Source: an uncultured Gemmatimonadales bacterium
GTDB lineage: Bacteria > Gemmatimonadota > Gemmatimonadetes > Longimicrobiales > RSA9
Direction: 5' to 3'
Assembly: GCA_963798085.1 (NCBI GenBank)
Contig: CAWCRS010000008.1
Span: 384,001-448,000, forward strand
Length of the DNA: 64,000 nucleotides
Under the pieces are notes generated by a model, which was given only the letters and a program-made list of their open reading frames with translations, was not told the origin of the DNA and did no database searches. Of the stretch, positions 929 through 18,797 are shown in pieces. Made by a program: the position numbers and the translations under genes. Each line of letters starts with the position of its first letter. The stretch's first letter is position 1.

Positions 929-3604
929 CTACTCGATACTCAGCGCCCGCACCGGATCGATCACCGCCGCCCGCCGCGCCGGTACCACGCAGGCCAGCGT
1001 TGCCACCAGCAGCACCAGCGCGCTCACCGCCAGATAGACGTACACGTCGATGCTGGCCACGTTGAACAGCTGCGACTTGATCACGCTGTTCGTGGCCAGT
1101 GCGCCGCCCACGCCCAGCGCTACGCCCACCAGCGCCAGCGTGCCGCCTCGCCACGCCACCTGCAGCGCCACGCGCATGGCGCGCGCGCCCAGCGCCATGC
1201 GCACGCCGATCTCGCGCGTCTGCCGCTCCACGGAATAGGCCAGCACGCCGTAGATGCCCACACAGGCGAGCAGCAGCGCCGTGCCCGCGAATACGCCAAT
1301 GAGCGTCAGCTGGAAGCGGCGGCCCGCCAGTGCGGAATCCACGATCTCGGCCATCGGCTGTACCCGCACCATGGCCACGGCCGGATCGATGTCGTGCGCC
1401 GCCCGGCGCAGCAGATCGGCCACCACGCTCACAGGCTGCGGTGAGCGCACCATCAGGTTGCCGGCGGACGCCGAGGGGAAATACATGGTGGGCCGCGGCA
1501 CCTGGTCCGGACCGAAATCGCGCACGTCATCCACGACGCCGATCACTTCGCACTCCGCGGGCCAGGTGCCCGACAGCTTCCAGCCCATGGGCGAGTCATC
1601 CCCGAAGAGCTGGTGCGCGAGTGTGCGGTTGATCACCACCTGTCTGCTGTTCGCATCCCGCGTTTCCGCCTCCGTGAAGCTGCGTCCGCTCAGCAGCTTC
1701 ATGCCCATCGTGTGGAAGTACGCAGCCGTTACGTTTCTCGCCTCCACGAAGGATGCCTTCGCGTCCCGGCCCAGCACGCCGATCTCCGTGTAGTTGTTGC
1801 CGAACTCGCGCACCGGCACCATGCTCGACATGGCGGAGGACGTGATCTGGCCGTTTGCCGAAAGCGCCGTCATGAGCTGATCCTGGAACGCCTGCACCTG
1901 CGCATTGTCGGGATAGCGGGACGCCGGGAACCAGAAGTTAGCCGCCAGCAGGTGCTCGGGATCGAAGCCCAGGTCGGAGCCCACCGCGGCCGCATAACTC
2001 TTGAGCAGCAGGCCCGCGCCCGTGACCAGCATGATGGCCAGCGCCACCTCGGCCACCACGAGTGCGCGGCCCACGCGCGAGAGACGCGCCGTGCCGCCCC
2101 GACCGCCTTCGCGCAGCACGTCGAAGTTGGGACGGCCGCGCAGCGCGGGCGCGAGGCCCACGAGCACGCCTGTCGCCAGCGAAGCGAGCAGCGTGAAGCC
2201 GAGCACCGGCGCATTGATGCCCACTGCGGAAGAGCGCGGCACCGAGTTCGCGAACGTGGCTTTCAGCACGTGCACGCCCGCCCACGCCACGGCCACGCCC
2301 GCAGCACCGCCCAGTACTGCCGTGATCACGCCTTCTGTGAGGAACTGTCGCGCCAGCTGCCAGCGGCCCGCGCCCAGCGCAGTGCGCACGCCCACCTCAC
2401 GCTGGCGGCGTTCGCTGCGCACCAGCAGCAGGTTGGTCACATTGGCGCACGCTATGAGCAGCACAAAGAGCGCCGACACCGCGAGGATCATGAGCGGCTT
2501 GCGCGTCGCCTGCGTCGAGATGTCGCGCAGCGTGCGCGCCGAGAAGCTGGTGTTCTCGTTGCCTTTCGGGAACTGATCGCGCAGCGGTATCCACGCGGAC
2601 TTCAGTTCGGCGGCTGCGGTCGTGACATCGGCACGCGGCGCCAGTCGCGCGTACATGCGGATGTAGTTCTGCCCGCGCGCCGCGCGCTGCTGTTCGGTAA
2701 AGCGCAGCGGCACCCACACGACCGAGCCGAGGAAGCTGAACTCGCGCGGCATGACACCGATCACCGTCGTCGGCTCGTCATTCAGGCGAAAGTCCCTGCC
2801 CACGGCGCTCGGGTCGCCACCCAGCTGTGTGCGCCAGAAACCGTCGCTCACGATCGCCACCGCGGGCGCACCCTGCTGCCCATCGGCCGCGCTGAAGCCA
2901 CGGCCACGCGCCGGCGCCACGCCCAGCATGTCCAGCAAACCCGTGGTTACCGCGGCGCCCGCGAAGCGCGCCGCATCACCCTGTCCGGACAGCACAAACG
3001 ACTGCGTCGCCACACCCTCGAGCGGCGACAGCGAATGCGCCCGCTCGCGCATGTCGTAGAAGTTGCCCGGCGAGAGCGGCAGCAGCGCACCCGCGATGCT
3101 GGGATGCGTGCGACCCACCATCACCACCCGATCCGCATCGCGGTAGGGGAGGGGCGCGAACAGCGCGCCGTAGAGCACGCTGAATACCGCCGTGTTCATG
3201 CCGATGCCCAGCGCCAGCGTGGCGATCACCACCACCGTGAAAGACGGGTGGCGGCGCAGGAAGCGCAGGCCGAAGCGCACATCCTCGAAGAGTCGCTGCA
3301 TGAATCCTCCGTGCCTTGTCGGGCGACCCGCCCGTTCCACGTATCCGTCGAAAACCGGCGCCGGCGCTCTGTCCATGCGCTCGCGCAGCGCCGCCACCGC
3401 CAGACTCCACGACGTGCGCAGCAGGAACAGCACTGCCGCGCCACGACCGGCCTGCCGGACTTCCACCCACCGCTCCGCGAACGTCTCCCCCATCTCGGCG
3501 CCGTAGCGCTCGCGGAAGGCGGCCGGATACAGCCCTAACATGAGTGTTATAAGGCGGCGCGCCGCCGCGGGCGGCCTGGCACCGCGCTCGCCGGCTGGCC
3601 GCAT
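929..3604 (-). CDS. ADOP-family duplicated ABC permease (MacB/FtsX-like)
   Basis: LYPAAFRERYGAEM prefix, [60 protein letters not shown]. Confidence 0.93.
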   Translation of the reverse strand: MRPAGERGARPPAAARRLITLMLGLYPAAFRERYGAEMGETFAERWVEVRQAGRGAAVLFLLRTSWSLAVAALRERMDRAPAPVFDGYVERAGRPTRHGGFMQRLFEDVRFGLRFLRRHPSFTVVVIATLALGIGMNTAVFSVLYGALFAPLPYRDADRVVMVGRTHPSIAGALLPLSPGNFYDMRERAHSLSPLEGVATQSFVLSGQGDAARFAGAAVTTGLLDMLGVAPARGRGFSAADGQQGAPAVAIVSDGFWRTQLGGDPSAVGRDFRLNDEPTTVIGVMPREFSFLGSVVWVPLRFTEQQRAARGQNYIRMYARLAPRADVTTAAAELKSAWIPLRDQFPKGNENTSFSARTLRDISTQATRKPLMILAVSALFVLLIACANVTNLLLVRSERRQREVGVRTALGAGRWQLARQFLTEGVITAVLGGAAGVAVAWAGVHVLKATFANSVPRSSAVGINAPVLGFTLLASLATGVLVGLAPALRGRPNFDVLREGGRGGTARLSRVGRALVVAEVALAIMLVTGAGLLLKSYAAAVGSDLGFDPEHLLAANFWFPASRYPDNAQVQAFQDQLMTALSANGQITSSAMSSMVPVREFGNNYTEIGVLGRDAKASFVEARNVTAAYFHTMGMKLLSGRSFTEAETRDANSRQVVINRTLAHQLFGDDSPMGWKLSGTWPAECEVIGVVDDVRDFGPDQVPRPTMYFPSASAGNLMVRSPQPVSVVADLLRRAAHDIDPAVAMVRVQPMAEIVDSALAGRRFQLTLIGVFAGTALLLACVGIYGVLAYSVERQTREIGVRMALGARAMRVALQVAWRGGTLALVGVALGVGGALATNSVIKSQLFNVASIDVYVYLAVSALVLLVATLACVVPARRAAVIDPVRALSIE

Positions 3605-3975
3605 CAGCGCGCCTCGCGCGGCTGCATGGGCCGCTGCCCCGCCAGCTCCAGCACCGCCCGCAGCCGCTCCAGCTCCGCCGTCACCACCGCCCGGCCCAGC
3701 GCCGTAATGCGATAGAACCGGCGGTCCCGACCCGGCGCCGGCCCGTCATCCGTCGCCCTCGCCTCCTCCATCAGCCCGTCCCGCTCCAGCCGGTGCACCA
3801 CCCGGTACAGCGAGCCCAGCTCCACACGCAGCGCACCGCCCGACTGCTCCTCCACCGCCTTCATCAGCGCGTAGCCGTGCAGCGGCGCCCGCGAAACGGC
3901 CAGCAGCAGCTGCAGGTCGGCGGGCGCCAGCGGCAGGAACGCGCGCGGGTCGGGCTGCTTTTTCCTGGCAGTCAC
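3604..3975 (-). CDS. PadR-family transcriptional regulator
   Basis: LHGYAL...GSLYRVVHRLERDGL...RRFYRITALG; translationally coupled to the permease. Confidence 0.93.
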   Translation of the reverse strand: MTARKKQPDPRAFLPLAPADLQLLLAVSRAPLHGYALMKAVEEQSGGALRVELGSLYRVVHRLERDGLMEEARATDDGPAPGRDRRFYRITALGRAVVTAELERLRAVLELAGQRPMQPREAR

Positions 3976-4179
3976 GGTCGTCTCTCCTTATCTGGTCGCT
4001 GCATATATGTAGCAAGATAATATAGGACCGACAACCGGGCTGGGGCGAACCGCGCGACGACGCCCGCGACTGGCGTGATTTTCCCTTCGGGCGCGTGAGT
4101 TTTCCCCCGACATGCGGAATCCGGCGAAGCCACAGATTCCTTCCGGGGAGGGCAGTTCCGGGTGCTGCAGGAGGCGCAT

Positions 4180-4866
4180 ATGAAACGCGAATGGACCGTG
4201 CTGGCTGCGGCCTTCGTGGCCGTTGCCGGGTGTCGATCGACGGGCCGCCTGGCGAACTACGAGTTCCCGGGCCGCACGCTGGCCGTGGCGTACGTCAATT
4301 CACCGGGGCCGCGCGTGCTGACCGGCCCGTACTTCCTGGACCGCGGACATGGGCATGACCCTGTGCACGCGGTACTGAAGGTGGGTGCGCGCGTGGTGAA
4401 GGAGATTCAGGCCGCGGAGGTGCGGGCGCGGCTGGACAGCGCGACGCACCAGGTGGATGTGGGCGGACGCATGGCCGATCGCACGCTGCAGCGTGCGGCG
4501 CGCTGGCTGCGCGCGCGGCCCGTGGAGCGCGAAGCCGATGCGGACTTCATCGTCGAAGTCAGGTTGCGCGACTACGGCATTGACGCCAAGGACTGGGACG
4601 CGGCGGCGCACTTCTTCGTCGACGCGGAAGTCTCGCTGATCGATGGAGGGCGCGGCACCGAGGTCTGGCACTCGCACGTGCGCGCCCGCGATCCGATTGC
4701 GCCGGCCATCTTCGGGCCCGGCACGATCGTGCGTGATGTGGTCACGGCCAGCGCACTGGGCAGTCTCGAGGTCGATGAGATTGCCTGTGCGCTCGAGCGT
4801 TTGAGCGACTTTGCGGCGGATCGCATCACGGATCGGCTGCGCGACGCACTGGCGCGCGTCCGCTAG
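4180..4866 (+). CDS. Lipoprotein of unknown function
   Basis: AGGAGG RBS, then MKREWTVLAAAFVAVAGC with lipobox. Confidence 0.7.
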   Translation: MKREWTVLAAAFVAVAGCRSTGRLANYEFPGRTLAVAYVNSPGPRVLTGPYFLDRGHGHDPVHAVLKVGARVVKEIQAAEVRARLDSATHQVDVGGRMADRTLQRAARWLRARPVEREADADFIVEVRLRDYGIDAKDWDAAAHFFVDAEVSLIDGGRGTEVWHSHVRARDPIAPAIFGPGTIVRDVVTASALGSLEVDEIACALERLSDFAADRITDRLRDALARVR

Positions 4867-5032: not shown

Positions 5033-5064
5033 CGAAAACTCTCGCGCGCGCCCGTCCAATCCCT
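5033..5064 (+). promoter_or_regulatory. Putative ECF promoter upstream of the peptidase-emfourin operon
   Basis: CGAAAA-N14-CGTCCAATCCCT; 13 nt (CCGTCCAATCCCT) identical to 7843-7855. Confidence 0.5.
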
Positions 5065-5102
5065 TGTTCCATAATCCGCCACTCGAGGCCGAGAGGAATC
5101 TC

Positions 5103-6473
5103 ATGGACGCCATTCCTGTCAACTTCGTTCCCACCCCAACGAACAGTTATCGCAGTCATCGCAAGCTGATGCAGGCGACGGCCCAGCCGGGCCGGCCGAT
5201 TCTGCCCACGACGAAACCGCTGGCACCGCCCGTGCGCGGGCCACGCGCGCTCATCTGGAAGCAGGACCCGTCCGTCGCAGACATCGGCATCCGCAAGGTG
5301 TTTCTGCCCAACCTGTGCCTCGCCGGCCCGCGCGATGCGCGCATCATGAGCCAGGGGCTGCCCACCGTGAGTCCCAATGCAGACGGTGACTTCATCCAGA
5401 CGCCCGACACGGACGCTTTCAATGCAGTGCACACGTTCGCCGTGGTGCGCATGACACTGAATCTGGCGCAGCGGGCGCTGGCGGCGTTGAAGCATCCCAT
5501 GCCCTGGCAGTGGAGCACGCCGCAGGATGTTTCGCCGCTGCAGGTGTTCCCACACGGTCTGCCCGGCACCATGAACGCCTTCTATTCGCGGAATCAGCGT
5601 GCGCTCCGCTTCGGTGATTTCGACATGCCCGGCAGCAGGCCGCTGCAGCGCGTGTTCACCTGTCGCTCGTTCGACATCGTTTCGCACGAAACCGGGCACG
5701 CCATCCTGGACGGGCTCAAGCCGCAATGGCTGGACAACGGCAATCCCCCGCAGACAGGCGGCCTGCACGAGTCCTTCGGCGATCTGACTGCGATCTTCCT
5801 CACGCTCTCGCAGATGGACCAGGTGGAAGCGATCATCGCCTACACCAAGGCCGACCTCCACGCCAAGACGTTCCTGGCCGACATTGCCGAGCAGTTCGGC
5901 CTGGCGCTGGGCCGGCCCAACGGACTGCGCAACGCGGACAACGATCTGAAGCTGAGCGAAACCGGCACGGAGGTGCACGCCATCTCGCAGGTGTTCACCG
6001 GCGCTGTCTACGATGTGATGGCAGACATCTTCGATCACGAGTGCAGCATCAGCCGGGACGCCAAGGATCCGGCGCAGGTGCTCTTCGAGACCGCACGTTA
6101 TGTCTACAGCCTGCTGCTCCAGGGCATACTCGCCTCACCCGACCAGGGCGCGACCTTCGCCGACGTGGCGCGCGCCATGATCGATCACCTCACGGGCAAG
6201 GACAAGAAGCACGCGACCTATCGCGATTACATCTGGAAGCACTTCGCGGTGCGTGAGGTACTTTCCACCCAGGAGGCCAAACCGGGCATGCGCGCACCTG
6301 CTCGCCTCACCGCCGGCGTGCAGGACGCGGAAGACGCGGAACAGGATCGTCGCACATGCTGTGGCACCATGCGCCTCGGAGAATACCACGACGAGGAGAA
6401 GGCGCTGGCCGATGAAGCGAGACGATTCGCCGCCGCGCTGGGCGAGTTGCAGAGCAACGGGAACGGCCGTTAA
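5103..6473 (+). CDS. Thermolysin-like (M4/M36 gluzincin) zinc metalloprotease, no signal peptide
   Basis: NAFY, HETGH (HExxH), GGLHESFGD (third ligand, cf. thermolysin GAINEAISD), EVHAISQV; GAGAGG RBS before ATG 5103. Confidence 0.85.
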   Translation: MDAIPVNFVPTPTNSYRSHRKLMQATAQPGRPILPTTKPLAPPVRGPRALIWKQDPSVADIGIRKVFLPNLCLAGPRDARIMSQGLPTVSPNADGDFIQTPDTDAFNAVHTFAVVRMTLNLAQRALAALKHPMPWQWSTPQDVSPLQVFPHGLPGTMNAFYSRNQRALRFGDFDMPGSRPLQRVFTCRSFDIVSHETGHAILDGLKPQWLDNGNPPQTGGLHESFGDLTAIFLTLSQMDQVEAIIAYTKADLHAKTFLADIAEQFGLALGRPNGLRNADNDLKLSETGTEVHAISQVFTGAVYDVMADIFDHECSISRDAKDPAQVLFETARYVYSLLLQGILASPDQGATFADVARAMIDHLTGKDKKHATYRDYIWKHFAVREVLSTQEAKPGMRAPARLTAGVQDAEDAEQDRRTCCGTMRLGEYHDEEKALADEARRFAAALGELQSNGNGR

Positions 6474-6482
6474 GCTCCTGTC

Positions 6483-6779
6483 ATGAAACTGAACATTACG
6501 CAGTCGGGCGGGTTCGCCGGAATCACCGCGCCGCTGCTGGCGATCGATGGCGAGGCCCTCGACCCGGCACGCGCGCGCCAGCTGGAAGCACTCGTGCAGC
6601 AGGCGGATCTCGAGCAGCTCGCGGCGGCATCGTCGCAAACGAGGGGTGCGGACCTGTTGCACTACGCACTGGACATCGACACCCCCGAGGGCCACCGCCG
6701 CTTCCAGATCAGCGATGATGGCGGCCCGAATGCGGCCCGCTTCCACGCGTTTCTCGATCAGCTGAAGCGACTGCTCTGA
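6483..6779 (+). CDS. Emfourin (protealysin inhibitor, M4in)-like protein
   Basis: 98 aa, N-terminal QSGGFAGI, GADLLHYALDI motif, directly downstream of an M4-like protease. Confidence 0.85.
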   Translation: MKLNITQSGGFAGITAPLLAIDGEALDPARARQLEALVQQADLEQLAAASSQTRGADLLHYALDIDTPEGHRRFQISDDGGPNAARFHAFLDQLKRLL

Positions 6780-7014
6780 CTGCTAACAGCCTTACGTACA
6801 TGTGCGGACCGGTGCGCATCCGCTCGCCGGTCCGCACCTTTCGTTGTGCCCGCCCCGGCGGCCCTGTAAGTTGTGCGCGTTTCCGAGAATGACCCGACGC
6901 GGCAAACGAGGGGCTGCTACCCGGTAGCAGCAGCCCCGCACTACTGACGCGGGGGAGCTCCTGTCGAAAACCCGCTTGCGGGCGAAAAAACCGTCGTCGC
7001 TGACAGCGTTCGAG

Positions 7015-7821
7015 ATGCATCTGGAACCAGAGGCAGAAGGCATCGGACCGGACAGCTCGGAAGCAGGCGCACGACTCCTCGCCCATCTGGAGGACATCGA
7101 CAGCATCGCGGCCGCCATTGCGCGCCGTCATGCCCTCCGTCGTGAAGAGGCCGAGGAATTCACTTCCGCCGTGCATCTGAAGCTGACGCAGGATGATTGC
7201 GCCGTACTGCGCAAGTTCGAGCAGCGCGCGGCGCTGCGCACGTATCTCACCGCCGTCATCACCAACGTCTTCCGCGACTATCGCAATCAGCGCTGGGGTC
7301 GCTGGCGCAATTCCGTGGCGGCTCGCCGCAGGGGTCCGCTGGCGATGCGGCTCGAGACGCTGCTCTATCGCGACAGCTACACGCTGGCGCAGGCCGCGGA
7401 AATCCTGCGTGGAACGGAACTCAATGTGCCCGGCGATGCCGACCTCGCGCGGCTCGCTGCGATCTTGCCCGAGCGGCCCGGCACGTACGAAGTAGGCGAC
7501 AGCGCACTCGGCGGCGCCGTCGCACCGCAGGCTTCCGATGACGGTCTCTGGCTCACGGAGGCGGAGCGCGTGCAATCGGCGACCGAGCACGCGGTGGCAC
7601 GCGCTCTTGCCGCGCTGCCACATGAAGACCAGCTGATCGTGCGCATGCAGTATTTCGACAACATGACGGTAGCCGACATCGCGCGCACGCTGCACCTCGA
7701 CCAGAAGCCACTGTATCGCCGTTGTGAAGCGATCCGGCGTCAGGTACGCCGCGAGCTGGAGGCGCAGGGCCTCGGGGCGGACGTGGTGGCGAGGTATTTC
7801 GGCGACGAAGGGATGGCCTGA
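7015..7821 (+). CDS. ECF sigma-70 factor with long sigma2-sigma4 linker
   Basis: EAEEFTSAVHLKL, LRTYLTAVITNVFRDYR (sigma2); LAALPHEDQLIVRMQYFDNMTVADIARTL (sigma4). Confidence 0.88.
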   Translation: MHLEPEAEGIGPDSSEAGARLLAHLEDIDSIAAAIARRHALRREEAEEFTSAVHLKLTQDDCAVLRKFEQRAALRTYLTAVITNVFRDYRNQRWGRWRNSVAARRRGPLAMRLETLLYRDSYTLAQAAEILRGTELNVPGDADLARLAAILPERPGTYEVGDSALGGAVAPQASDDGLWLTEAERVQSATEHAVARALAALPHEDQLIVRMQYFDNMTVADIARTLHLDQKPLYRRCEAIRRQVRRELEAQGLGADVVARYFGDEGMA

Positions 7822-7822
7822 T

Positions 7823-7855
7823 GGAATTGTCACAGGCGATGGCCGTCCAATCCCT
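7823..7855 (+). promoter_or_regulatory. Putative ECF promoter upstream of the anti-sigma/CHAT genes
   Basis: GGAATT-N15-CGTCCAATCCCT, matching the ECF GGAAn...CGTC pattern. Confidence 0.55.
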
Positions 7856-7909
7856 CATGGAGTCCGCGCCGTGGGCTCCACCCGCAACCCCGGGCGCGGG
7901 AGAGGCCCT

Positions 7910-8852
7910 GTGAGCAGACCGAATAGACAGACTGTCGATCCGAATCGGCTGGCGGCTTTCCTCGACGGAACGCTGAGCGAGCTCGAACGGCAGGAGGTGA
8001 TGGCGGTCCTGGCCAGCTCGCCTGACGCCTACGAGCAGTTCGTGGAAACGGCGGCCGTGCTGAAGGACCTCGCCGCGACGCAGCCCGCGCCATCGCCTCT
8101 GCCGCGTCCGCGGCCGGTGTTCTCCAGAATGCCACGCTGGGCGCCCGTCCTGCTGGCGGCGACGCTCGCGGGCATTTTCTTCTGGGCGAGGTCGCTGCGC
8201 ACGCGGGCGGCGCCGGACACGGCCGCGCTGCTGGCGCTGGCGCCGGCACTCGGGCCCGCGAGCGGCAGTGGCAGTCTGCGTGCTCGCCTGGGCAATGACT
8301 GGGGAGCGCCGGGCTGGTCGGTGAATCGCGGTGCAGGCGACAACCTGAACCCGGATCAGCGCGCGTTCCGGCTGGGCGCGCGCGTGGCCGATCTCGAGAT
8401 CGCGGCGCGCATCGCGGATCCCGAGGCGATTCGCATTGCGGGCGCCGAGTTGCAGTCACTGGCACGCGCGGAAGTGGCCGGCTCGGTCATCGCCGAGCGC
8501 TACACAGCCATCATCGCGGGCAGCGCCTCGGCCGCTCCCGCCGCTGCGGCCGAGCGCGCCCGTGCGGCCGCGGATCTGCACAGCCTGCTGCAGAACTCAC
8601 CCTGGTTCGACCTCGGCATCTCGGATCGAGCACGCAAGGCTCGCCCTGCTCGCGGACGATCGCGTGTTCTTCGACGCGGGCGCGCCGCAGAACACGCTGC
8701 GGGCGCTGGAGAAGCAGGCGGGCAAGGCAGGTGCTAAGATAGCCCGCAATGTGCGGGCCTTCCTGGAAACGACACGCCTCGGCGGCGCCGCGGCGGAGCA
8801 CGACGCTCTGCGCGACCGCCTCGACGCCATCATCCTCGCCGCGGCGGGCTGA
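7910..8852 (+). CDS. Putative single-pass anti-sigma factor (degenerate zf-HC2-like N-terminus); frameshift near 8621
   Basis: DPNRLAAFLDGTLSELERQEVMAVLASSPDAY, TM WAPVLLAATLAGIFFW; ...WFDLGI continues in the alternative frame as IEHARLALLA...AAAG*. Confidence 0.7.
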
Positions 8853-11800
8853 GCGCCGCCGCACCGGCGGTTCGCTGCTGCTGCTCGCGCTGACCGCCTG
8901 TAACACAGCTGTTAGTGCGCCCACTGACGGCGCCGGCCCGCTGCTCGCGTCCGTACGGGATGCGCTCCGTGGCGACCGGCCCTTCGAGGCGATGCTCACG
9001 CCCGACTGGCTGCCCTGCGCACTCGCTCCCGATACGACACCCGGTGCTCCCGACATCCGCTGCCGCGCGCTGCCGCGGGAGCGCACGCTGACCCGTCTGA
9101 CGCACACCGCTCCGCGCATCCGCGCCGCGCTCAGCGACAGCAGTCCCGACGCACTGCGCTCGCTGGCGCTGCTCGAGAATGGCGACCGCCGGCAATGACC
9201 GGGCTACGCTGGAGCGCGCCGTCGGTCACCTCGAGGAAGCCGGCGCGGCCGGAGCAGGCCCATCGGCCGGTCTGCTGCACCAGCTCGCCATCGCGCAGGT
9301 GCTGCACGCGCACGCAGCGGAGGATGCGTTCGACCTGTTTCGCGCGCTCGACTCCATGGAGCGGGCCGCGGCCCTGGATTCAGGCGACGCAGCCATTCGC
9401 TTCGATCGCGCGCTGCTCCTGGATCATCTCGACCTCACACTCGAGGCGGCCACAGCGTGGAGCGCATACCTGACACGCGATTCGACCTCGCGCTGGGCCG
9501 CGGAAGCACGCGCCCACCGTGCGCGGCTGGACTCGCTGACATCGGCCGTGCGAGACCCCGCGCTGCAGCGCAACCCGCAGATCATCCGTGAGCAGGCAGA
9601 CTCCATGCTCGTGCGCTGGGCGCAGGCGACGCTCGCACACGACGCAGCCGGTGCCCGCGTGCTCCTGGCCGATGCGCTGGCCGCCGGCGAAAAACTGCAA
9701 GCCGCGCACGGCGACCGCAGCGTGCTGGATGCGGCGCAGGACCTGGCGGACGCGAGCGCCGCGCAGCAACGGCGCATGGCGGCCGGCCTCGCCGCATGGT
9801 CCGAGGGCCGTGCCCTCTACGGCGAGGCCAACTACGAGGCCGCCCGCCCGAACCTTGAACAGGCTGTTAGGGCGCTGGCGAACAGCAGCGCCCTTGCCGG
9901 GCCGGCCGGCCTGCTGCTGGCCGGCGTGGACTTCTACGCCGGACGCTATGCCGGCGCTGCGACCGTGCTGGACGTGCTGCGCCGCGCCCCGGATGCCACG
10001 CAGCATCTCTGGATCCGGGGCCGCGCCGAGTGGCTGGCGGGACTCATCGCGTTCAAGCAGGGCCGGCTGAACGCGGCACTCGCGCACTACGCGGCCGGCG
10101 CGGCGTTCTTCCAGCAGGCCGGCGAGACGCCCAGTCTCGCGGCCATGCTGGCGCTGCAGTCCGAGGCGAACTGGGAGTCGAGCCAGGAGCATCGCGGCAA
10201 TGCGCTGGCGGCTGCCTCCCTCGCGCAATTCCGCGCGTTTCCCATGCTTCCTGCGCGCTACAATCTGCTCGCTGTACTCAGCAACACGATGGCCGCCAGG
10301 GGATTGCCCGCCGCCGCCGTCCGCCTGAGCACGGAAGCGCTGCGCGTGGCCGCGCAGACTGGCCGACCGCAGGATGCCGTCGAAGCGCTGTCACGACTGG
10401 TGCGCGCCGAGCTGCGTGCGGGCTACGCGGACAGCGCAGCAGCGCACCTGCGCGCAGCGCGCAGCGCGCTCACCGCCGTGACTGACCGCGGCATGCACGA
10501 TCGCGTGGATGCCGAGCTGGCGCAGGCGGAGGCGGAGATGCAGCGCAACGTCGAGCCGCACCTGGCGCTGGCTGCGCTGTCGCGCGTCGTCGAACGTTTT
10601 CGCACGGAGCCGATCAGCCTGATCCCGGTGCTGCGCACGCGCGGCGAGGTGTCGCTCGGCAATGGCAATGAAGCGGGTGCGCGCGCCGATTTCGAGCGCG
10701 TGCTGGCACTGCTGCGCCAGCAGGCTGCCGATGCCCCGGACGCGGTGGATCGCGCCGCCTTGATCGAGTCCGGCAACACCGCGCTCGATGCACTGCTCGC
10801 CATCCACGTCGACCACGGCGAGGCCATGCAGGCGCTGGCGCTGCTGGAAGACACCCGTGCCGCCGCGTTCCGGCGGGACGCGGGACGCAGCATCGTCGCT
10901 TTGCATGAACCGGACCCCGCGCGTGCCGGGACCGGGTCCACGGACGCCGCGGACGCGACGCCACAGCCGCACCCGGATGAGGCCGTGCTCGAGTACGCGC
11001 TGCTGCCGGATCGGCTGCTCATCTGGGCGATCACCCGCGACAGCGTGGTGCTGCGCCAGGTGGCCCGCCCGCGCGCACTGCTGGAGGCCGCGATCCGGCG
11101 CCTGGACGTGCATCGCCGGCACGTCGAGGACTCGGCGGCGTTCACCCGGCTCGCCGCATCCCTGTACGACGCGCTCATTGCGCCCGTCGCGCCCGTGCTC
11201 GCGGGCTACCACCAGCTCGCCATCGTCGCCAATGGGGCACTGCAGCAGCTGCCCTTCGCCGCGTTGCGCAGCGCGCGCACCGGACGCTGGCTGATCGAGG
11301 ATTACGCGCTGCGCGGTGTGCCTACCGCCGGCTTCGCGCTGCAGGCGCAGTCCGATGCGAAGACAGCGCTGCGAAGCGCATTGCTGGTTGGTGATCCGGC
11401 CTTCAGCACGAGCGCCCTGCCCGATCTCGAGCCGCTGCGCGGTGCGCCGTCCGAGATCAGGCGTATCGCCAGCGACTACGCGCAAGCCGATACGCTGGTG
11501 CACGCGCAGGCCACGCGCGAGGCGCTGCTGCGCGCGCTGCCCGGCCACGACGTGCTGCACTTCGCGGGACACGCGCGCTACCGGCCGGACTCGCCCCGCC
11601 TCTCCTTCCTGGTGCTGGCGCCGTCGCCCGGCCTCTCCGATAATGGGCTGTTATACGCGCAGGACATCGGCCGCCTGGACCTGCGCGCTGTGCGGCTCGT
11701 GGTGCTCTCCGCCTGCTCCACGCTGGACGGCGGCTCGACACGCACCGCCGGCGCTGCGGCGCTGGCCCGCGCCTTCCTCGCCGCCGGCGTCCGCGGCGTC

Positions 11801-11992
11801 GTGGGCAGCCTGTGGGAGGTGCGTGATGTGCCCTCGACCGCTCTCATGATCGCGTTCCATCACTTCCTCGCGGACGGCGCGCCGCCGCCGCTCGCGCTGC
11901 AGTCTGCGCAGCGCGCAGCGCTGGCTTCGGACGATGCCGCGCTGCGTGATCCAGCCGCCTGGGCCGCGTTCCGCTTCGAGGGAGGCTGGTAA
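8850..11992 (+). CDS. TPR-CHAT (caspase/separase-like) protease; probable lipoprotein N-terminus, frameshift near 9180, start uncertain
   Basis: Catalytic DVLHFAGH and LVVLSAC, GSLWEV, PAAWAAF; long helical TPR region; upstream frame has RRRTGGSLLLLALTAC lipobox. Confidence 0.85.
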
Positions 11993-11995
11993 TCG

Positions 11996-12027
11996 GGAAG
12001 TTCGCGAGCCCTGGCCGTCTATTCGGG
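11996..12027 (+). promoter_or_regulatory. Putative ECF promoter upstream of the 282-aa gene
   Basis: GGAAGT-N14-CGTCTATTCGGG. Confidence 0.5.
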
Positions 12028-12076
12028 AAACACACATTTCGCCCACACCGCGCCGCACGCGCGCAGGAGACCCTGG

Positions 12077-12925
12077 ATGGCCACCGATCTCAGCTTCTTC
12101 GGCATCTGCCTCTTCGTCTGGGAATCGAATCGCCTGCGTATCCTGTTGCCCAACGCCACCAGCCCGTCCGGCGCTACGCACCCGGACAAGACCAAACCCA
12201 ACGTGGCGAATGTGCACATGCCTCGCCTTTATCTCGAGGGTCCGAACTCCACCGTGGCCGTCAACCTGAACGGCCATCGCGTCACCATTGATGGCGGAGC
12301 GGGCAAGCCCACGCGGGGTGGCGTGGTCGAAATGATCGGCATCGGCCAGTTCGCGGAGAACATCGAGTTGCGCACCAATGCGACGGCGGGAAGGCCCTCG
12401 CTGGTGGCGGGTGAGGTCATCGTCACGGGCGGCACGCTGAGCACACGGCGCAGCGCGCCGCAGGCCACGTATCGCTTCAATCAGTCGCTGCGCAGCCACA
12501 ACTACGAGCTGACCGCGCCCTCCTGCTCGCTGCTCTGGTCACACTCGGGCACTGTCACCATCAGCGTGCACGCGGATCCGAAAGACCCCAACGGTGATCA
12601 GTACATTCTGGCGCAGGGACCCTACCGCGTGGTGATCGGCAACGTGTGCAACAACCCCATGCCAGCCACCTGGGAATGCGAGGAAGTGTCGTTTCCGCCC
12701 GGCTCCAACGTGCCGGACGAAGACTTCAAGTGGCTGTACCACATGTTCAAGCCCGCCGGCACCAGGCGCTGGAGCGATCTGCTGAAGGGGAAGGAACTGC
12801 CTGTGCCGGAAGCGATCGTGGCCCCGGCCGCCGCCGTCGCCAGCATCAGTGGCGAAGCAAGCATGGGTACGACGTCGTCGTGTTTTCCCGGTGAGTGGTG
12901 TCCGCCGAACGGACCCTGTCCGTAA
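12077..12925 (+). CDS. Hypothetical protein, beta-rich, with Cys/Pro-rich C-terminal tail
   Basis: AGGAG RBS; 282 aa; FFGICLFV N-terminus, DEDFKWLY, ends SCFPGEWCPPNGPCP. Confidence 0.8.
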   Translation: MATDLSFFGICLFVWESNRLRILLPNATSPSGATHPDKTKPNVANVHMPRLYLEGPNSTVAVNLNGHRVTIDGGAGKPTRGGVVEMIGIGQFAENIELRTNATAGRPSLVAGEVIVTGGTLSTRRSAPQATYRFNQSLRSHNYELTAPSCSLLWSHSGTVTISVHADPKDPNGDQYILAQGPYRVVIGNVCNNPMPATWECEEVSFPPGSNVPDEDFKWLYHMFKPAGTRRWSDLLKGKELPVPEAIVAPAAAVASISGEASMGTTSSCFPGEWCPPNGPCP

Positions 12926-13012
12926 GCGGGCATTTGGCGCCGGGCCCCGCCCCGCGATCGGATTTCGCGACCGCGGAAAGCGCTGCAGCTGTGATGCCCG
13001 CCAGCCCTCAGC

Positions 13013-13051
13013 GGGAGGCAGCCCTCCCCGGGTGTTGCCTCCCGGCTTTTT
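13013..13051 (+). terminator. Rho-independent terminator
   Basis: GGGAGGCAGC...GTTGCCTCCC stem followed by TTTTT. Confidence 0.65.
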
Positions 13052-13068
13052 CTCGACGGGCGTGCAGC

Positions 13069-14259
13069 CTACTGCGTGGGCGCGGGCTGAAACTCACCGC
13101 AGAGATTGAGCGCCACCGTCTGCAGCACGAGCTGCCTGGCGCGCTCCACGATATCATCGATCAATGGCGTGTTCGCGAACATGTTGCGCGCGCGACGACG
13201 CATCTCATCGACGCTCGGGATGTGCGGCAGCTGCATCTCCGCCAGCATGGCGGCCGCCTGTGAGCGGGCCGACACCATCCGGCTCTGCAGCTCGGGGAAG
13301 TGCGGCATGTGCGTGAGCGCTTCACGCACCTGCGAGGTGATGCGGTCGACAGGGAAGCTCTCCGCCAGCTGGTGTGCCACCTTTTCGATCGTGGCACGCC
13401 CGAGGCGATGCTCGTTGCGCACCACTTCGACCGGTGGCTCCCCGAGGTCCCACACGATGCCCAGCCAGGACAGCACCTTGAGCGTGTAGAACGTCACGTC
13501 GATTTCCCACCAGCGGAAGCCCTGCCGCGTCGAGCGCTGATACGCATGATGGTTGTTGTGCCAGCCCTCGCCCATGGTGAAGAACGCCAGCAGCCAGTTG
13601 TTGCGCGAGTCGTCGCCGGTCACGTAACGCTGCTTGCCGTAGACGTGCGCCAGCGAGTTGATCATGAAGCTGCCGTGATAGAGCAGTACCGTGCTCCAGA
13701 AGAAGCCCACGATCAGGTACGGCCAGCCACCCAGCAGGAAGATCAGCAGCGCCAGAGCGAACGGTACGACATACTGATGCCGGTCCAGCCACTGCAGCTC
13801 GGGGTACTGCGCCAGATCCTGCACCAGCGAGTAGTCCGTCTCACCGTGCCGCGGTGTGAAAATCCAGCCCACATGCGAGTACAGAAAGCCGCGATGCCGC
13901 GGCGAGTGCACATCCATTTCGGTATCAGAAAAACGATGATGATGACGGTGCTTCGCCGCCCACCACAACACGCCGCGCTGCGCCGCCGTCTGCGTCATCA
14001 CGGCGAGCACGAACTGACCGGCCCGGCTCGTCTTGAACGAGCGATGCGAGAAGTAGCGATGGAATCCCGCCGTCACCGCGATCATGCGGACGACGTAGAG
14101 CGCTACGCACAACAGCACCGCGCCCGCCGGCACGCCCGTCCAGATGGCGGCAAAGCAGGCAAGGTGCACCAGCAGGAATGGAATCGTCGCGGGGTAAATA
14201 ATGTCGTCGTGATCGTCCACTTCCGGGTCAGTGGACGGCGCGACCAGCACATCGGACAT
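13069..14259 (-). CDS. Acyl-CoA/acyl-lipid delta-9 fatty acid desaturase
   Basis: His boxes HRYFSH, HRHHH, GEGWHNNHH; C-terminal helical extension. Confidence 0.92.
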   Translation of the reverse strand: MSDVLVAPSTDPEVDDHDDIIYPATIPFLLVHLACFAAIWTGVPAGAVLLCVALYVVRMIAVTAGFHRYFSHRSFKTSRAGQFVLAVMTQTAAQRGVLWWAAKHRHHHRFSDTEMDVHSPRHRGFLYSHVGWIFTPRHGETDYSLVQDLAQYPELQWLDRHQYVVPFALALLIFLLGGWPYLIVGFFWSTVLLYHGSFMINSLAHVYGKQRYVTGDDSRNNWLLAFFTMGEGWHNNHHAYQRSTRQGFRWWEIDVTFYTLKVLSWLGIVWDLGEPPVEVVRNEHRLGRATIEKVAHQLAESFPVDRITSQVREALTHMPHFPELQSRMVSARSQAAAMLAEMQLPHIPSVDEMRRRARNMFANTPLIDDIVERARQLVLQTVALNLCGEFQPAPTQ

Positions 14260-14573
14260 GAAGGTCCCTTTTTCGCGGGGGCGCGGTGCGCGCCAGTACA
14301 GTCGGGGGCGACGGTAACCTCGAAACCTAGCCGGCTGGCCGGCCGAACTCAAGCCGGATCGTGATTTCCGGGGCGCATTTGTCGCAAAACGCCCGGTCGG
14401 GTCGAACCACGGGCGAACAGGGTTGCGCCGCAGTCGAGCCGCGCGACGCCGGCGCACTCGCCACTGCTACCCGCCCCGCGTTATGCTGGCACCGACTCAC
14501 GCAAACGCGGAAGGGCACAGCACATGGCACTCGCACAGGCAGTCAGCGCCCGCGCTCCTGGCCGGGCAGTCTG

Positions 14574-15785: not shown

Positions 15786-16127
15786 ATGAGCCCGAGAAGC
15801 GGCGTGTCCGTCACGCCACAGGTGTTCCAGATCATGCTGTCGCTGGCCGGCGGCGACCTGCACGGCTACGCGCTGATGCAGGACATCGAGCAGCGCACGG
15901 ATGGCGAGGTGACGCTGACCGCGAGTACGCTGTACGGCGCCATCCGGCGCATGCGGGATGCCGGCTGGATCGAAGAACGCAGCACGGATGACGCGGATGA
16001 GCGGCGGCGTGTGTACCGGCTGACACGCGCGGGCCGGGTCGCGGCCGGCGAAGAAGCGGTGCGGCTGGAGGCCATGGCGCGCGAGGCCAGGCGCCGTCGC
16101 CTGTTTCCTTCCCCTCGCCGGTCCTGA
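15786..16127 (+). CDS. PadR-family transcriptional regulator
   Basis: LHGYAL, STLYGAIRRM, RRRVYRLTRAG. Confidence 0.92.
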   Translation: MSPRSGVSVTPQVFQIMLSLAGGDLHGYALMQDIEQRTDGEVTLTASTLYGAIRRMRDAGWIEERSTDDADERRRVYRLTRAGRVAAGEEAVRLEAMAREARRRRLFPSPRRS

Positions 16128-16136
16128 GGAGGCCAA

Positions 16137-18797
16137 ATGCGCAACGCGCTGCGGTGGCTGTGCGCGCTGTGGATCCGCGCGCTGGTGCGCTGCCTGCCGC
16201 CATCGTTCCGTGCGGCGTACGGCAGGGAAATCGTGGCACTGTATCGCGCGTCGCAGGGCGGGAGCGCGGGCACTGCCGCCGTGCTGCGTCGCTTTGTGCG
16301 CGAGCTGGGCAGTCTGCTGCGGCTGCTGGTTCGGGAGTGGGGCACAGCGCTGGCCGCGGTGCTGCACGGGGCGCGGCGGGCGCCATGGCTGCTCGACGCC
16401 CGCCATGTGGCGCGTACACTCGCGCGCTCGCGCGCCTACGCGATTGCAGTCGTGAGCACGCTGGCGCTGGGCATCGCCGGGCTGGCGGCGCTCAGCGTCG
16501 TGGTGCGGATCACGTTGCTGCGTCCGCTGCCCTATGCAGCGCCGGGCCAGCTGGTGCGCATCGTGGAAAACGCGCACGGTGCCTACAGCGGCGAGACGAC
16601 ATCACTGCCCAACATGGTGGCGTGGCAGGAGCGCGTGCACACGCTCGAGCACATTGCCGCGGTTTCCGCCGGTGGCGGCGTCAATGTGAGTCTGGGCGAG
16701 CGGACGGTTCGCGTCCGCTCGGCGCAGGTATCCGCGGAGACGTTCGCGCTGCTGGGTGTGCAGCCGCTGCGGGGCGGGGTTCTCGTCGGTGATGATTTCA
16801 AGCCGGGCGGTGCGCGCCGCGTCGTGCTCAGTCATGGGTTCTGGCAGCAGTTCCTGGGCGCGGACACGACGATCATCGGGCGCACGCTGCGCATCAATGG
16901 CGCGCCCGTCGAGGTGGCGGGCGTGATGCCTGCCGGCTTCTCCTTTCCCGACGGCACCACCGCGCTGCTGCTGCCCCTGCAGATAACACCGGGTTTGGGC
17001 CTGGCGTCGCCCAATGGCCGCTGGGCGAGGCTGTTCCAGGCGTACGGCCGCGTGCGCGCGGGAGGGACGCTGCAGAGCGCGGCACGCGAGCTGGCGGTGG
17101 TGTCGGCGGACCTGCAGCGCGAGTTCGGGCCGCCCAACGAAGGGATGCGTGCGCGGCCCCTGCCGCTGGCGGACACCATGATGGGCAGCTCTCGCCGGCT
17201 GATCGAGCTGCTCACGGGGGCGGCCGTCATCGTGCTGCTGGTCGCCTGCAGCAACATCGTCGCGCTGACAGCCGTGCGCGCAGCGCAGCGGCGCCGGGAA
17301 CTGGCCATCCGCATGGTTCATGGCGCGACGCGCGGCGCGGCACTGCGCCTGTTCGGCCTGGAGCTGGCTGTCCTGGGCGTGGTGGGCACGAGCGTCGGCG
17401 CCTGGCTCGCGGTGCTGCTGGGACCCGCAGCCAGCCGGCTGATCCCCAATGCGCTGCCGCACGCGCCGCTGCGCGTCCCGGAGCTGCTGGCCAGTGCCTC
17501 ACTCCTGGGCGCGCTGACGGTGATGTTCCTGCTGCTGGGTCTGCTGCGTTCGCCGGTGGCAGCCGCGGCACTTTCGCAGGCCGTGAGCGGAGGCACGCGT
17601 ACCACCATGAACCGGCACCAGCGGCGCTGGCGCAGTCTGATGGTCGCCGGACAGATCGCGGCCGCCATCACACTGCTCATCGCAGCCGCCGCGCTGGTGC
17701 GCAGCTTCCTCGGCGTGGTGCGCACACCCACCGGATTCCAGCCCCAGGGCATCGTCACCATGGCTGTGAATCCCGGATTCATGCAGCCGGCGCAACTCGA
17801 GCAGTTCTACGCAACGCTGGAAGCGCAGGTGCGAGTGCTGCCCGGTGTGCAGGGACTGGGCATGGTGGACGGCCCGCCGCTCTCGGGGGGCGGCATCGGG
17901 TGGACCTACGTGCCGGAAGGAAATGGCATTGCGGGCGGGCAGGAGCCGGCTGCCACAACGCATCTGATCGACGACGACTATCCTTCCACCATCGGCATCC
18001 CGCTGCTGGCAGGCCGGCTGCTGCAAGCCGCCGACACGTTCGCGCAGGCGCCCGGTGTGCTGGTGAGCGCGACACTCGCGCGCGCCAGCTTCGGCACGCC
18101 GGCTGCGGCCGTCGGCGGTCGCATCACGCTGGGCAGCGTGAGCTCCGGCAACGTGCCCATGACGATCGTGGGCGTCCTCGGGGATGTGCGCGACGGTTCC
18201 CTGCGTGATCCGCCCGGCTCTCTCATCTATCAACGCTACGCCGCGTCGACCCCGAGCAGCCGCATGGTGCTGGTGGTGCGCGCGGACGGCAATGCCAGTG
18301 AGCTGGCCGCCCGCGTGCAGACCATCGTCCGGGCGCTGAATCCGGACGTCCCCATATCCAGCGTGCGCGCCCTTGATGCCATTGTGGCCGACGCCGCCGC
18401 GCGCGAGCGCGTGACCGCCGCCATCGCCGGGGCGCTGGGCGCGCTCACTCTGCTCCTCGCCGCGGTGGGAATCACAGGACTGTTCGGCCAGCTCGTCATG
18501 GACCGCCAGCGCGCGCTCGCCATTCGCCTGGCCATGGGTGCCACACCGGCACGCGTCATCGGGGAAACCCTGGGCAGCGCCCTGCTCATCATCAGCGCCG
18601 GCGCTGCGCTCGGCCTGGGCGCGGCGCTGGCCCTGCGCGGCGTACTGCGCCCCTTCCTGGTGCGCGCCGCGCCCTTCGACGCCGGCGCCGCGGCCCTGAC
18701 TATCCTGCTGTTAGGCGGCATCGGCCTGCTGGCGGCGCTCATCCCCGCCCTGCGCAGCACGCGCCGTTCCCCGCTGCGCGCACTGGCCGGCGACTGA
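16137..18797 (+). CDS. ADOP-family duplicated ABC permease (divergent)
   Basis: LPPSFRAAYGREI prefix, TLALGIAG, LLVACSNI, RELAIR, LAIRLAMGA, PALRSTRRSP. Confidence 0.9.
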   Translation: MRNALRWLCALWIRALVRCLPPSFRAAYGREIVALYRASQGGSAGTAAVLRRFVRELGSLLRLLVREWGTALAAVLHGARRAPWLLDARHVARTLARSRAYAIAVVSTLALGIAGLAALSVVVRITLLRPLPYAAPGQLVRIVENAHGAYSGETTSLPNMVAWQERVHTLEHIAAVSAGGGVNVSLGERTVRVRSAQVSAETFALLGVQPLRGGVLVGDDFKPGGARRVVLSHGFWQQFLGADTTIIGRTLRINGAPVEVAGVMPAGFSFPDGTTALLLPLQITPGLGLASPNGRWARLFQAYGRVRAGGTLQSAARELAVVSADLQREFGPPNEGMRARPLPLADTMMGSSRRLIELLTGAAVIVLLVACSNIVALTAVRAAQRRRELAIRMVHGATRGAALRLFGLELAVLGVVGTSVGAWLAVLLGPAASRLIPNALPHAPLRVPELLASASLLGALTVMFLLLGLLRSPVAAAALSQAVSGGTRTTMNRHQRRWRSLMVAGQIAAAITLLIAAAALVRSFLGVVRTPTGFQPQGIVTMAVNPGFMQPAQLEQFYATLEAQVRVLPGVQGLGMVDGPPLSGGGIGWTYVPEGNGIAGGQEPAATTHLIDDDYPSTIGIPLLAGRLLQAADTFAQAPGVLVSATLARASFGTPAAAVGGRITLGSVSSGNVPMTIVGVLGDVRDGSLRDPPGSLIYQRYAASTPSSRMVLVVRADGNASELAARVQTIVRALNPDVPISSVRALDAIVADAAARERVTAAIAGALGALTLLLAAVGITGLFGQLVMDRQRALAIRLAMGATPARVIGETLGSALLIISAGAALGLGAALALRGVLRPFLVRAAPFDAGAAALTILLLGGIGLLAALIPALRSTRRSPLRALAGD

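Follow-up and report, generated by a model that had tools for sequence, protein, structure and literature searches.

How could a sigma factor held at the membrane be set free by a caspase-clan protease encoded beside it, and which genes would it then switch on? This question is raised by six genes in a stretch of 64,000 nucleotides from an uncultured Gemmatimonadales bacterium (contig CAWCRS010000008.1, positions 384,001 to 448,000; hereafter the window, with positions counted from its first letter), which belongs to contig C8 of a 6.2-Mb assembly in 12 contigs (G000). As the original prediction had stated, all six lie on the + strand, in the order metalloprotease, emfourin, extracytoplasmic function (ECF) sigma factor, anti-sigma-like membrane protein, tetratricopeptide repeat (TPR)-CHAT protein and a 282-aa protein that we call X; the promoter-like sites and hairpins described below are on the same strand. 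From sequence and model comparisons, the best explanation, which we hold to be probable by a modest degree, is an envelope switch like DdvA/DdvS but divided between two proteins, DdvA/DdvS being a phage-defence regulator of Myxococcus xanthus (PDB 8ROT, 8RW5; PMC11506125, PMC6061681).

The core of this module consists of the ECF sigma factor, the anti-sigma, an exported TPR-CHAT and X. ECF and anti-sigma genes are adjacent across the mapped loci, with CHAT and X nearby in several orders, and the gene order of the window recurs in L022, in L023, in L043 (same genus) and in L049. X was found directly 3' of CHAT in 30 of 46 CHAT open reading frames (ORFs) with hidden Markov models; a further 8 have an X-like gene directly downstream, as judged by eye, X lies elsewhere in the locus in 5, and it was not found in 3. 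In an acidobacterial set, CHAT directly precedes X in 9 of 11 short loci. The core is conserved, but gene order, by which the original prediction proposed to check its system, does not hold for the protease/emfourin pair: at a relaxed threshold the pair occurs in 0 of 122 related module loci, although the same queries did find a pair in G313, a genome of the same family. In the window's phylum, X profiles matched 8 of 301 genomes, and among close relatives 8 of 41, this genome included in both; an acidobacterial sample gave matches in 10 of 251 genomes. With the ECF profile, matches were obtained in 16 of the 301 genomes and in 220 metagenome stretches, the best 80 of which were used, and a single-ECF query of genome contigs gave 6 loci. 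The module has a wide distribution in two soil phyla; a literature search, mostly of open-access papers, returned none on a split module with exported CHAT or on X.

This genome also contains a second, scattered set. A same-family ECF/anti-sigma pair lies just upstream of the window (G000:C8:381500-383400, corresponding to L001:9503-11330, - strand), with a weaker promoter site of 12.2 bits before its anti-sigma gene and no CHAT found within 12.5 kb; its ECF is 39% identical to that of the window. On contig C3, an intact lipoprotein TPR-CHAT, an X paralogue and an S8 subtilase occur without an ECF gene (G000:C3:250400-255700, corresponding to L002:7388-12723, - strand). The CHAT and X of contig C3 are possibly the partners of the orphan ECF pair.

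The TPR-CHAT protein (8850..11992) matches PF12770 at E 2.6e-56 and carries the HFAGH and LSAC motifs noted in the original prediction, whose His (11570) and Cys (11714) occur in all 37 aligned CHATs. Its gene changes frame at ~9178, and the 937-aa ORF lacks ~110 N-terminal residues. These contain, in the other frame, an RRR-hydrophobic-LTAC sequence with the lipobox Cys at 8899. Among related CHATs, 28 of 34 have an N-terminal hydrophobic stretch at the threshold set and 21 of 34 a lipobox pattern. Because of this lipoprotein signal in the missed N-terminus and the hydrophobic and lipobox patterns of the relatives, the CHAT is predicted to act in the extracytoplasmic space, where the anti-sigma C-domain also lies. 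DdvA (8ROT) was the best natural PDB match of the CHAT profile, at E 8.8e-24 versus ~2e-5 for other CHAT-domain entries. A conserved non-canonical CHAT start was considered and rejected, as 32 of 35 genes have ATG, GTG or TTG near the hydrophobic stretch.

The ECF sigma factor (7015..7821, 268 aa, with a long sigma2-sigma4 linker) was correctly recognized in the original prediction, matching TIGR02937 above the cut-off. The single-pass anti-sigma proposed next to it (7910..8852) is also present, but its gene model had to be revised, since the frame changes at ~8627 and the true C-terminus ends at 8852. It comprises a zinc-less three-helix N-domain, a membrane helix from ~8138, a periplasmic W-x3-R-G loop and a helical bundle. 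In the model of an intact relative (pLDDT 83.5), the N-domain resembles RsiW, MucA, RslA and PupR (Z 5.5-6.5, rmsd 2.8-4.7 over 53-60 residues). Only part of the family has the zinc motif CHCC (H-x3-C-x2-C), and the window protein has VLASSPDAY in its place. The periplasmic W-x3-R-G sequence, found in a loop of the model, has its Arg in 55 of 58 and its Gly in 50 of 58; this Arg (codon at 8327 in the window) is a candidate cleavage site. The periplasmic domain gave generic helical-bundle matches only (Z<=7.9), and in profile comparison it showed no likeness to the CHAT alignment, taken without its extreme N-terminus. A site-2 protease, RseP, is present in this genome above the cut-off.

We picture the switch as follows. 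At rest, the ECF sigma factor would very probably be held at the membrane by the single-pass anti-sigma. An outside cue would activate the lipoprotein TPR-CHAT, which as site-1 protease may cut the periplasmic linker of the anti-sigma, likeliest after the Arg of W-x3-R-G. RseP could then complete the cleavage, as shown for truncated DdvA. The freed sigma factor would transcribe from one type of promoter, defined here by motif conservation and represented by three sites, P1 to P3. Transcription from P2 would supply more anti-sigma and CHAT and so reset the switch, P3 would yield protein X, and P1 the metalloprotease and its inhibitor. Because the cargo can be exchanged and in many cases is a protease without signal, the switch probably drives a proteolytic response to stress or conflict. 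For DdvA, action of the CHAT as site-1 protease on the anti-sigma is unproven. Here it could be tested in trans, with enzyme and substrate being separate genes; the Arg of W-x3-R-G is a named candidate site, and a reporter could be built on the defined promoter.

The promoter motif combines a GGAA-like -35 with a GTCCGTC[T/C]AA-like -10 element. It was first spotted by visual inspection of the window and of the regions before stand-alone X genes, and 8 sites upstream of X, picked by hand from other genomes, served to build a first matrix. With this matrix, 49 of 89 de-duplicated ECF/anti-sigma junctions matched at >=10 bits, whereas the reverse strand gave 1 match and 30 shuffles gave 1.7 on average (at most 4). 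A matrix retrained on 68 of these junctions, none from this genome, ranked the three sites of the window near the top genome-wide: P3 (11995..12022, 82 nt before X) first with 21.0 bits, P2 (7822..7850, before the anti-sigma/CHAT operon and with one additional spacer base) third with 19.8 bits, and P1 (5032..5059, 71 nt before the metalloprotease start) fourth with 19.5 bits. By the first matrix, P1 had scored 16.0 bits at rank 14. Rank 7 of the retrained matrix is a site of 18.6 bits in the 3' end of the C3 CHAT gene, before the second X. No module-type site was found upstream of the ECF gene. The proposal that the ECF drives its own module together with the protease/inhibitor pair is hence supported by the shared promoter and the conserved core, but not for the ECF gene itself.

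Of the 38 X genes analysed for the motif, 24 have a site of >=13 bits in the 3.4 kb before them, 10 lack one and the other 4 are truncated; sites close to X genes overlap the first training set. Where X is coupled to CHAT, sites often occur inside the CHAT gene, at two fixed positions: near the 5' end in 7 of 35, where none of 60 synonymous shuffles scores as high, and near the 3' end in 6 of 35, where 0-3 of 60 do. The 5' sites belong to L024, L046, L048, L079, L081 (outside the shuffle control), L096, L114 and L122, the 3' sites to L002, L020, L049, L088, L092 and L126. A signal-less CHAT isoform made from the 5' internal promoter was rejected, as no consistent start or ribosome site was seen. 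Further intergenic high-scoring sites in this genome (G000:C1:271447/271656, C3:525398, C8:114842 and C8:38225) are possible remote regulon members.

At other loci, 41 sites of >=16 bits point at non-core genes. Among the 28 of these targets that were scanned, 7 are proteases, namely one S8, two S53, two C14 and two M1, the S53 pair and the M1 pair each being closely related; another 5 encode regulators or a kinase, 2 encode other named proteins, and 14 are without family. Five neighbours added by hand comprise three S8 proteases, one C14 protease and one CHAT-only protein. S8, S53, C14 or M1 proteases thus stand in the cargo role elsewhere. The motif offers a way to read the regulon of each module copy, and it shows swapping of protease cargo. 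No CBASS or CRISPR-Cas genes were found among the six genes, for which PADLOC gave a weak CHAT-domain match only, or among the 28 scanned targets; no genome-wide search for them was made.

In the window, the cargo role would fall to the metalloprotease (5103..6473, 456 aa, signal-less) and the emfourin-family inhibitor (6483..6779, 98 aa), the latter matching PF20242 at E 4.5e-14 as predicted. The metalloprotease has the motifs HETGH (H195-H199) and GGLHESFGD (E223), that is, HEXXH with a downstream Glu zinc ligand of gluzincin type, and both are kept across 21 relatives. Its assignment to M4 proved less clear than originally stated. The M36 match is below the cut-off, M4 matches are weak in 15 of the 21 close relatives (best E 9e-4), and no PDB match was found by sequence; given these weak M36 and M4 scores, M4/M36-like seems a fair label. 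The family is large and occurs in many phyla, with 1709 relatives at E<=1e-60 among 8000 scored and ~60% identity across phyla. Among kin, however, it is rare: in a 300-genome sample we saw partial matches of 29-40% only, and the protease occurs in 2 of 61 relatives, this genome included, and in 1 of 251 acidobacterial genomes. An emfourin gene directly 3' of the metalloprotease gene is found also in G313 (L184:1079-2925, contig C93), where ECF-CHAT-X lie on other contigs, and not in G489. Despite the negative gene-order result at the 122 loci, P1 restores the link of the pair to the module. Since the pair is absent from these loci, yet P1 ranks that high with an external matrix, it is swappable regulon cargo and not part of the core.

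Several observations weigh against a DdvA/DdvS-like switch with this regulon. With the first matrix there was no genome-wide excess of sites, 13 being found at >=16 bits versus 10-25 for spacer-shifted versions, and an AA...CGT promoter core is common to several ECFs (PMC6061681). Of the scanned targets, 21 of 28 are not proteases, counting those without family. In G313, the only other close relative with the pair, it lies on another contig than the module, and its metalloprotease has no strong site directly upstream. As CHAT specificity varies, with separases cutting after Arg and craspases after Met or Leu (PMC11506125), the Arg of W-x3-R-G is only a candidate site. In the parts of the DdvA report drawn on here, CHAT autoproteolysis is only proposed, and phage Mx4 was no trigger (PMC11506125). 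Unlike the exported CHAT, X of the window lacks an export signal. Finally, two genes are frameshifted in this assembly.

Protein X (12077..12925) belongs to an unnamed family that travels with this CHAT clade. It had no match in Pfam, NCBIfam, PDB by sequence or the ESM Atlas. The AlphaFold2 model is mostly beta and confident (pLDDT 88.4, pTM 0.89); its best fold match was VIA with Z 2.2 and rmsd 4.1 over 91 aligned residues, and Foldseek returned nothing at E<=0.001 in PDB or BFVD, absences that do not prove a new fold. H47 and the tail Cys C269 are invariant in 84 of 84 members; at position 216, 57 have Asp and 27 have His. This conservation suggests a His/Asp-His/Cys metal site. The linker before the tail Cys is variable and has a low pLDDT of 61-64. 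Two repeat proteins, P0018 and P0031, were dropped as X members. Most X proteins are without signal, and a Tat, Sec or lipoprotein signal was recognized by eye in ~10 that are X or X-like. Being widespread, confidently modelled, without a fold match and likely to have a metal site, the X family is a good structural target. Most likely it is a dedicated CHAT partner, be it an induced inhibitor, a ligand or a substrate.

If X were the substrate of the CHAT, the scheme would change. The sigma factor would induce X, another site-1 protease would open the anti-sigma, and the CHAT would cut the linker before the tail Cys to unblock the metal site by a cysteine-switch logic. In 38 of 46 cases the gene after CHAT is X or X-like, and CHAT-X pairs occur without ECF in stretches of 19-20 kb (on contig C3 of this genome and in L020, L021, L024 and L027). 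The three kept residues and the variable linker of low pLDDT would fit such a latch, and the signal-bearing X proteins could share the CHAT compartment. However, the linker contains no conserved P1 residue, most X proteins including that of the window would not reach this compartment by a signal, and the alignment may force a single tail Cys into one column. We hence regard X as the CHAT substrate as rather unlikely.

A bolder view would make X the ligand of the exported TPR-CHAT: a latent metalloprotein of new fold, closed by its tethered C-terminal Cys, in a module that serves as a caspase-clan alarm for cell damage. With most X proteins being cytoplasmic, X would meet the CHAT only upon breach of the inner membrane or lysis of sibling cells. 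Sigma-induced X would then give positive feedback and interchangeable intracellular proteases would be switched on, represented here by a protease/inhibitor pair of effector-immunity type. We consider this alarm doubtful, a speculation rather than an expectation.

One may also ask whether the CHAT is a mere regulon output, that is, an induced envelope protease, and whether the anti-sigma senses the cue via its own helical periplasmic domain. The window CHAT lies behind the sigma-type promoter P2, and cargo is often a protease, as this idea would have it. Yet a site of >=13 bits within 330 nt before the signal sequence is present in only 4 of 35 CHAT genes, the CHAT is conserved while cargo proteases are swapped, and the same family includes fused anti-sigma-CHAT forms. 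These are zinc anti-sigma-TM-TPR-CHAT genes that follow same-family ECFs and have the DdvA architecture (L007:10840-14870, L145:852-4364). An output role in place of signalling thus appears improbable. In both fused loci an X or X-like gene follows, and the L007 record is outside Myxococcota.

The frameshifts in the anti-sigma and CHAT genes are probably assembly errors, as rpoB in the same assembly (G000:C5:436158-440305) is likewise split over several frames, which indicates frequent indel errors. Both frames of both genes are matched by intact relatives. When short contigs were searched for coverage of the frameshift sites, neither site was covered. A single fused anti-sigma-CHAT gene with three frameshifts was ruled out, since in the paralogue and in intact relatives the anti-sigma stops at this same point and the CHAT begins with a signal sequence. 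That the frameshifts are real, in a decaying copy that no longer signals, is very unlikely: two genes are affected, no canonical start codon precedes the CHAT lipobox, and a short contig, maybe from the same data as the assembly, spans 8811-8963 gap-free, but against this stand the broken rpoB, a GC3 of 0.76-0.86 in every piece and the intact dyad and three promoter sites.

A 13-bp hairpin 3' of the emfourin gene (6802..6837, RNAfold) is a possible terminator between the cargo operon and the ECF gene. With this hairpin, three separate promoter-like sites and none before the ECF gene, the six genes probably do not share one transcript. The terminator that was said to end the locus is present as a hairpin with T-run (13028..13053), but it is weak by itself, with 8 such sites versus 5.9 expected. 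Among the neighbours, a predicted lipoprotein with no Pfam match and without module promoter (4162-4866) lies directly upstream of P1, and a fatty-acid desaturase gene (13069-14457) is convergent on the module; in another locus, a desaturase gene (L085:10625-11764) stands behind a 17-bit module-type site. Two pairs of PadR-like regulator and ABC permease, which we take to be ADOP-like, flank the locus (929-3975 and 15786-18797).

In regulated intramembrane proteolysis of the RseA/DegS/RseP and RsiW type, a single-pass anti-sigma is cut first at site 1 and then at site 2. The present anti-sigma is likewise single-pass, and its N-domain matches the fold of RsiW and MucA, but unlike in RseA/DegS/RseP the module itself encodes the candidate site-1 protease, a TPR-CHAT of the caspase clan. 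The metalloprotease/emfourin pair recalls the protealysin-emfourin operon of Serratia proteamaculans, as far as that account was drawn on, in that a signal-less HEXXH metalloprotease directly precedes emfourin; here the protease is divergent, with its weak M4/M36 scores and lack of a PDB sequence match, and the pair stands behind the promoter of an ECF module (PMC9505478).

Csx29/Csx30, the nearest model of the original prediction, turned out to be the more distant one. In type III-E Craspase, a TPR-CHAT protease frees an ECF-like sigma factor from its inhibitor, as would be the case here, and the locus likewise holds several sigma sites. However, in the sections of the Craspase work used here, Csx29 is cytoplasmic and activated by Cas7-11 and target RNA, and Csx30 is soluble, whereas the present CHAT is exported by its lipoprotein signal and the anti-sigma spans the membrane (PMC10028731). 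No Cas7-11 or other cas genes were found in the locus and flanking ORFs, the rest of the genome not having been searched for them, and Csx30 was not among the listed matches in fold searches with the X and anti-sigma models. The locus is further from Craspase than from DdvA/DdvS.

The statement that no characterised system has this composition also needs revision, as an ECF/anti-sigma pair that includes a periplasmic TPR-CHAT has been studied in DdvA/DdvS. In the parts of the DdvA report drawn on here, DdvA-like proteins are reported only in Myxococcota and one Comamonas (PMC11506125), and in the main text of the 2021 ECF re-classification the words 'CHAT', 'caspase' and 'TPR' do not occur (PMC7826278). 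Measured against those parts of the DdvA/DdvS accounts (PMC11506125, PMC6061681), the two systems have in common an ECF sigma factor adjoining a single-pass anti-sigma with a class I three-helix N-domain, an extracytoplasmic TPR-CHAT with a His-Cys dyad, whose location here follows from the signal sequence alone, an available RseP, and several promoter-like sites of AA-n-CGT type per locus. The DdvA/DdvS promoter is GTAA-n16-CGT; the AA..CGT core is common to both, whereas flanks and spacing differ here. Unlike DdvA, the CHAT is a separate lipoprotein with its own lipobox, a split shared by the four loci with the window's gene order, and the anti-sigma has a helical periplasmic domain of its own and an N-domain without zinc ligands. 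A conserved partner X is present, and among the targets scanned the cargo is metalloprotease/emfourin or other proteases, not CBASS or CRISPR. With no fusion, no zinc ligands and different cargo, the locus would work like DdvA/DdvS yet is not a member of that system. To this conserved module the present copy adds a well-tested promoter, protease cargo that can be exchanged, a candidate site of cleavage and, in X, a partner family for which no fold match was found.

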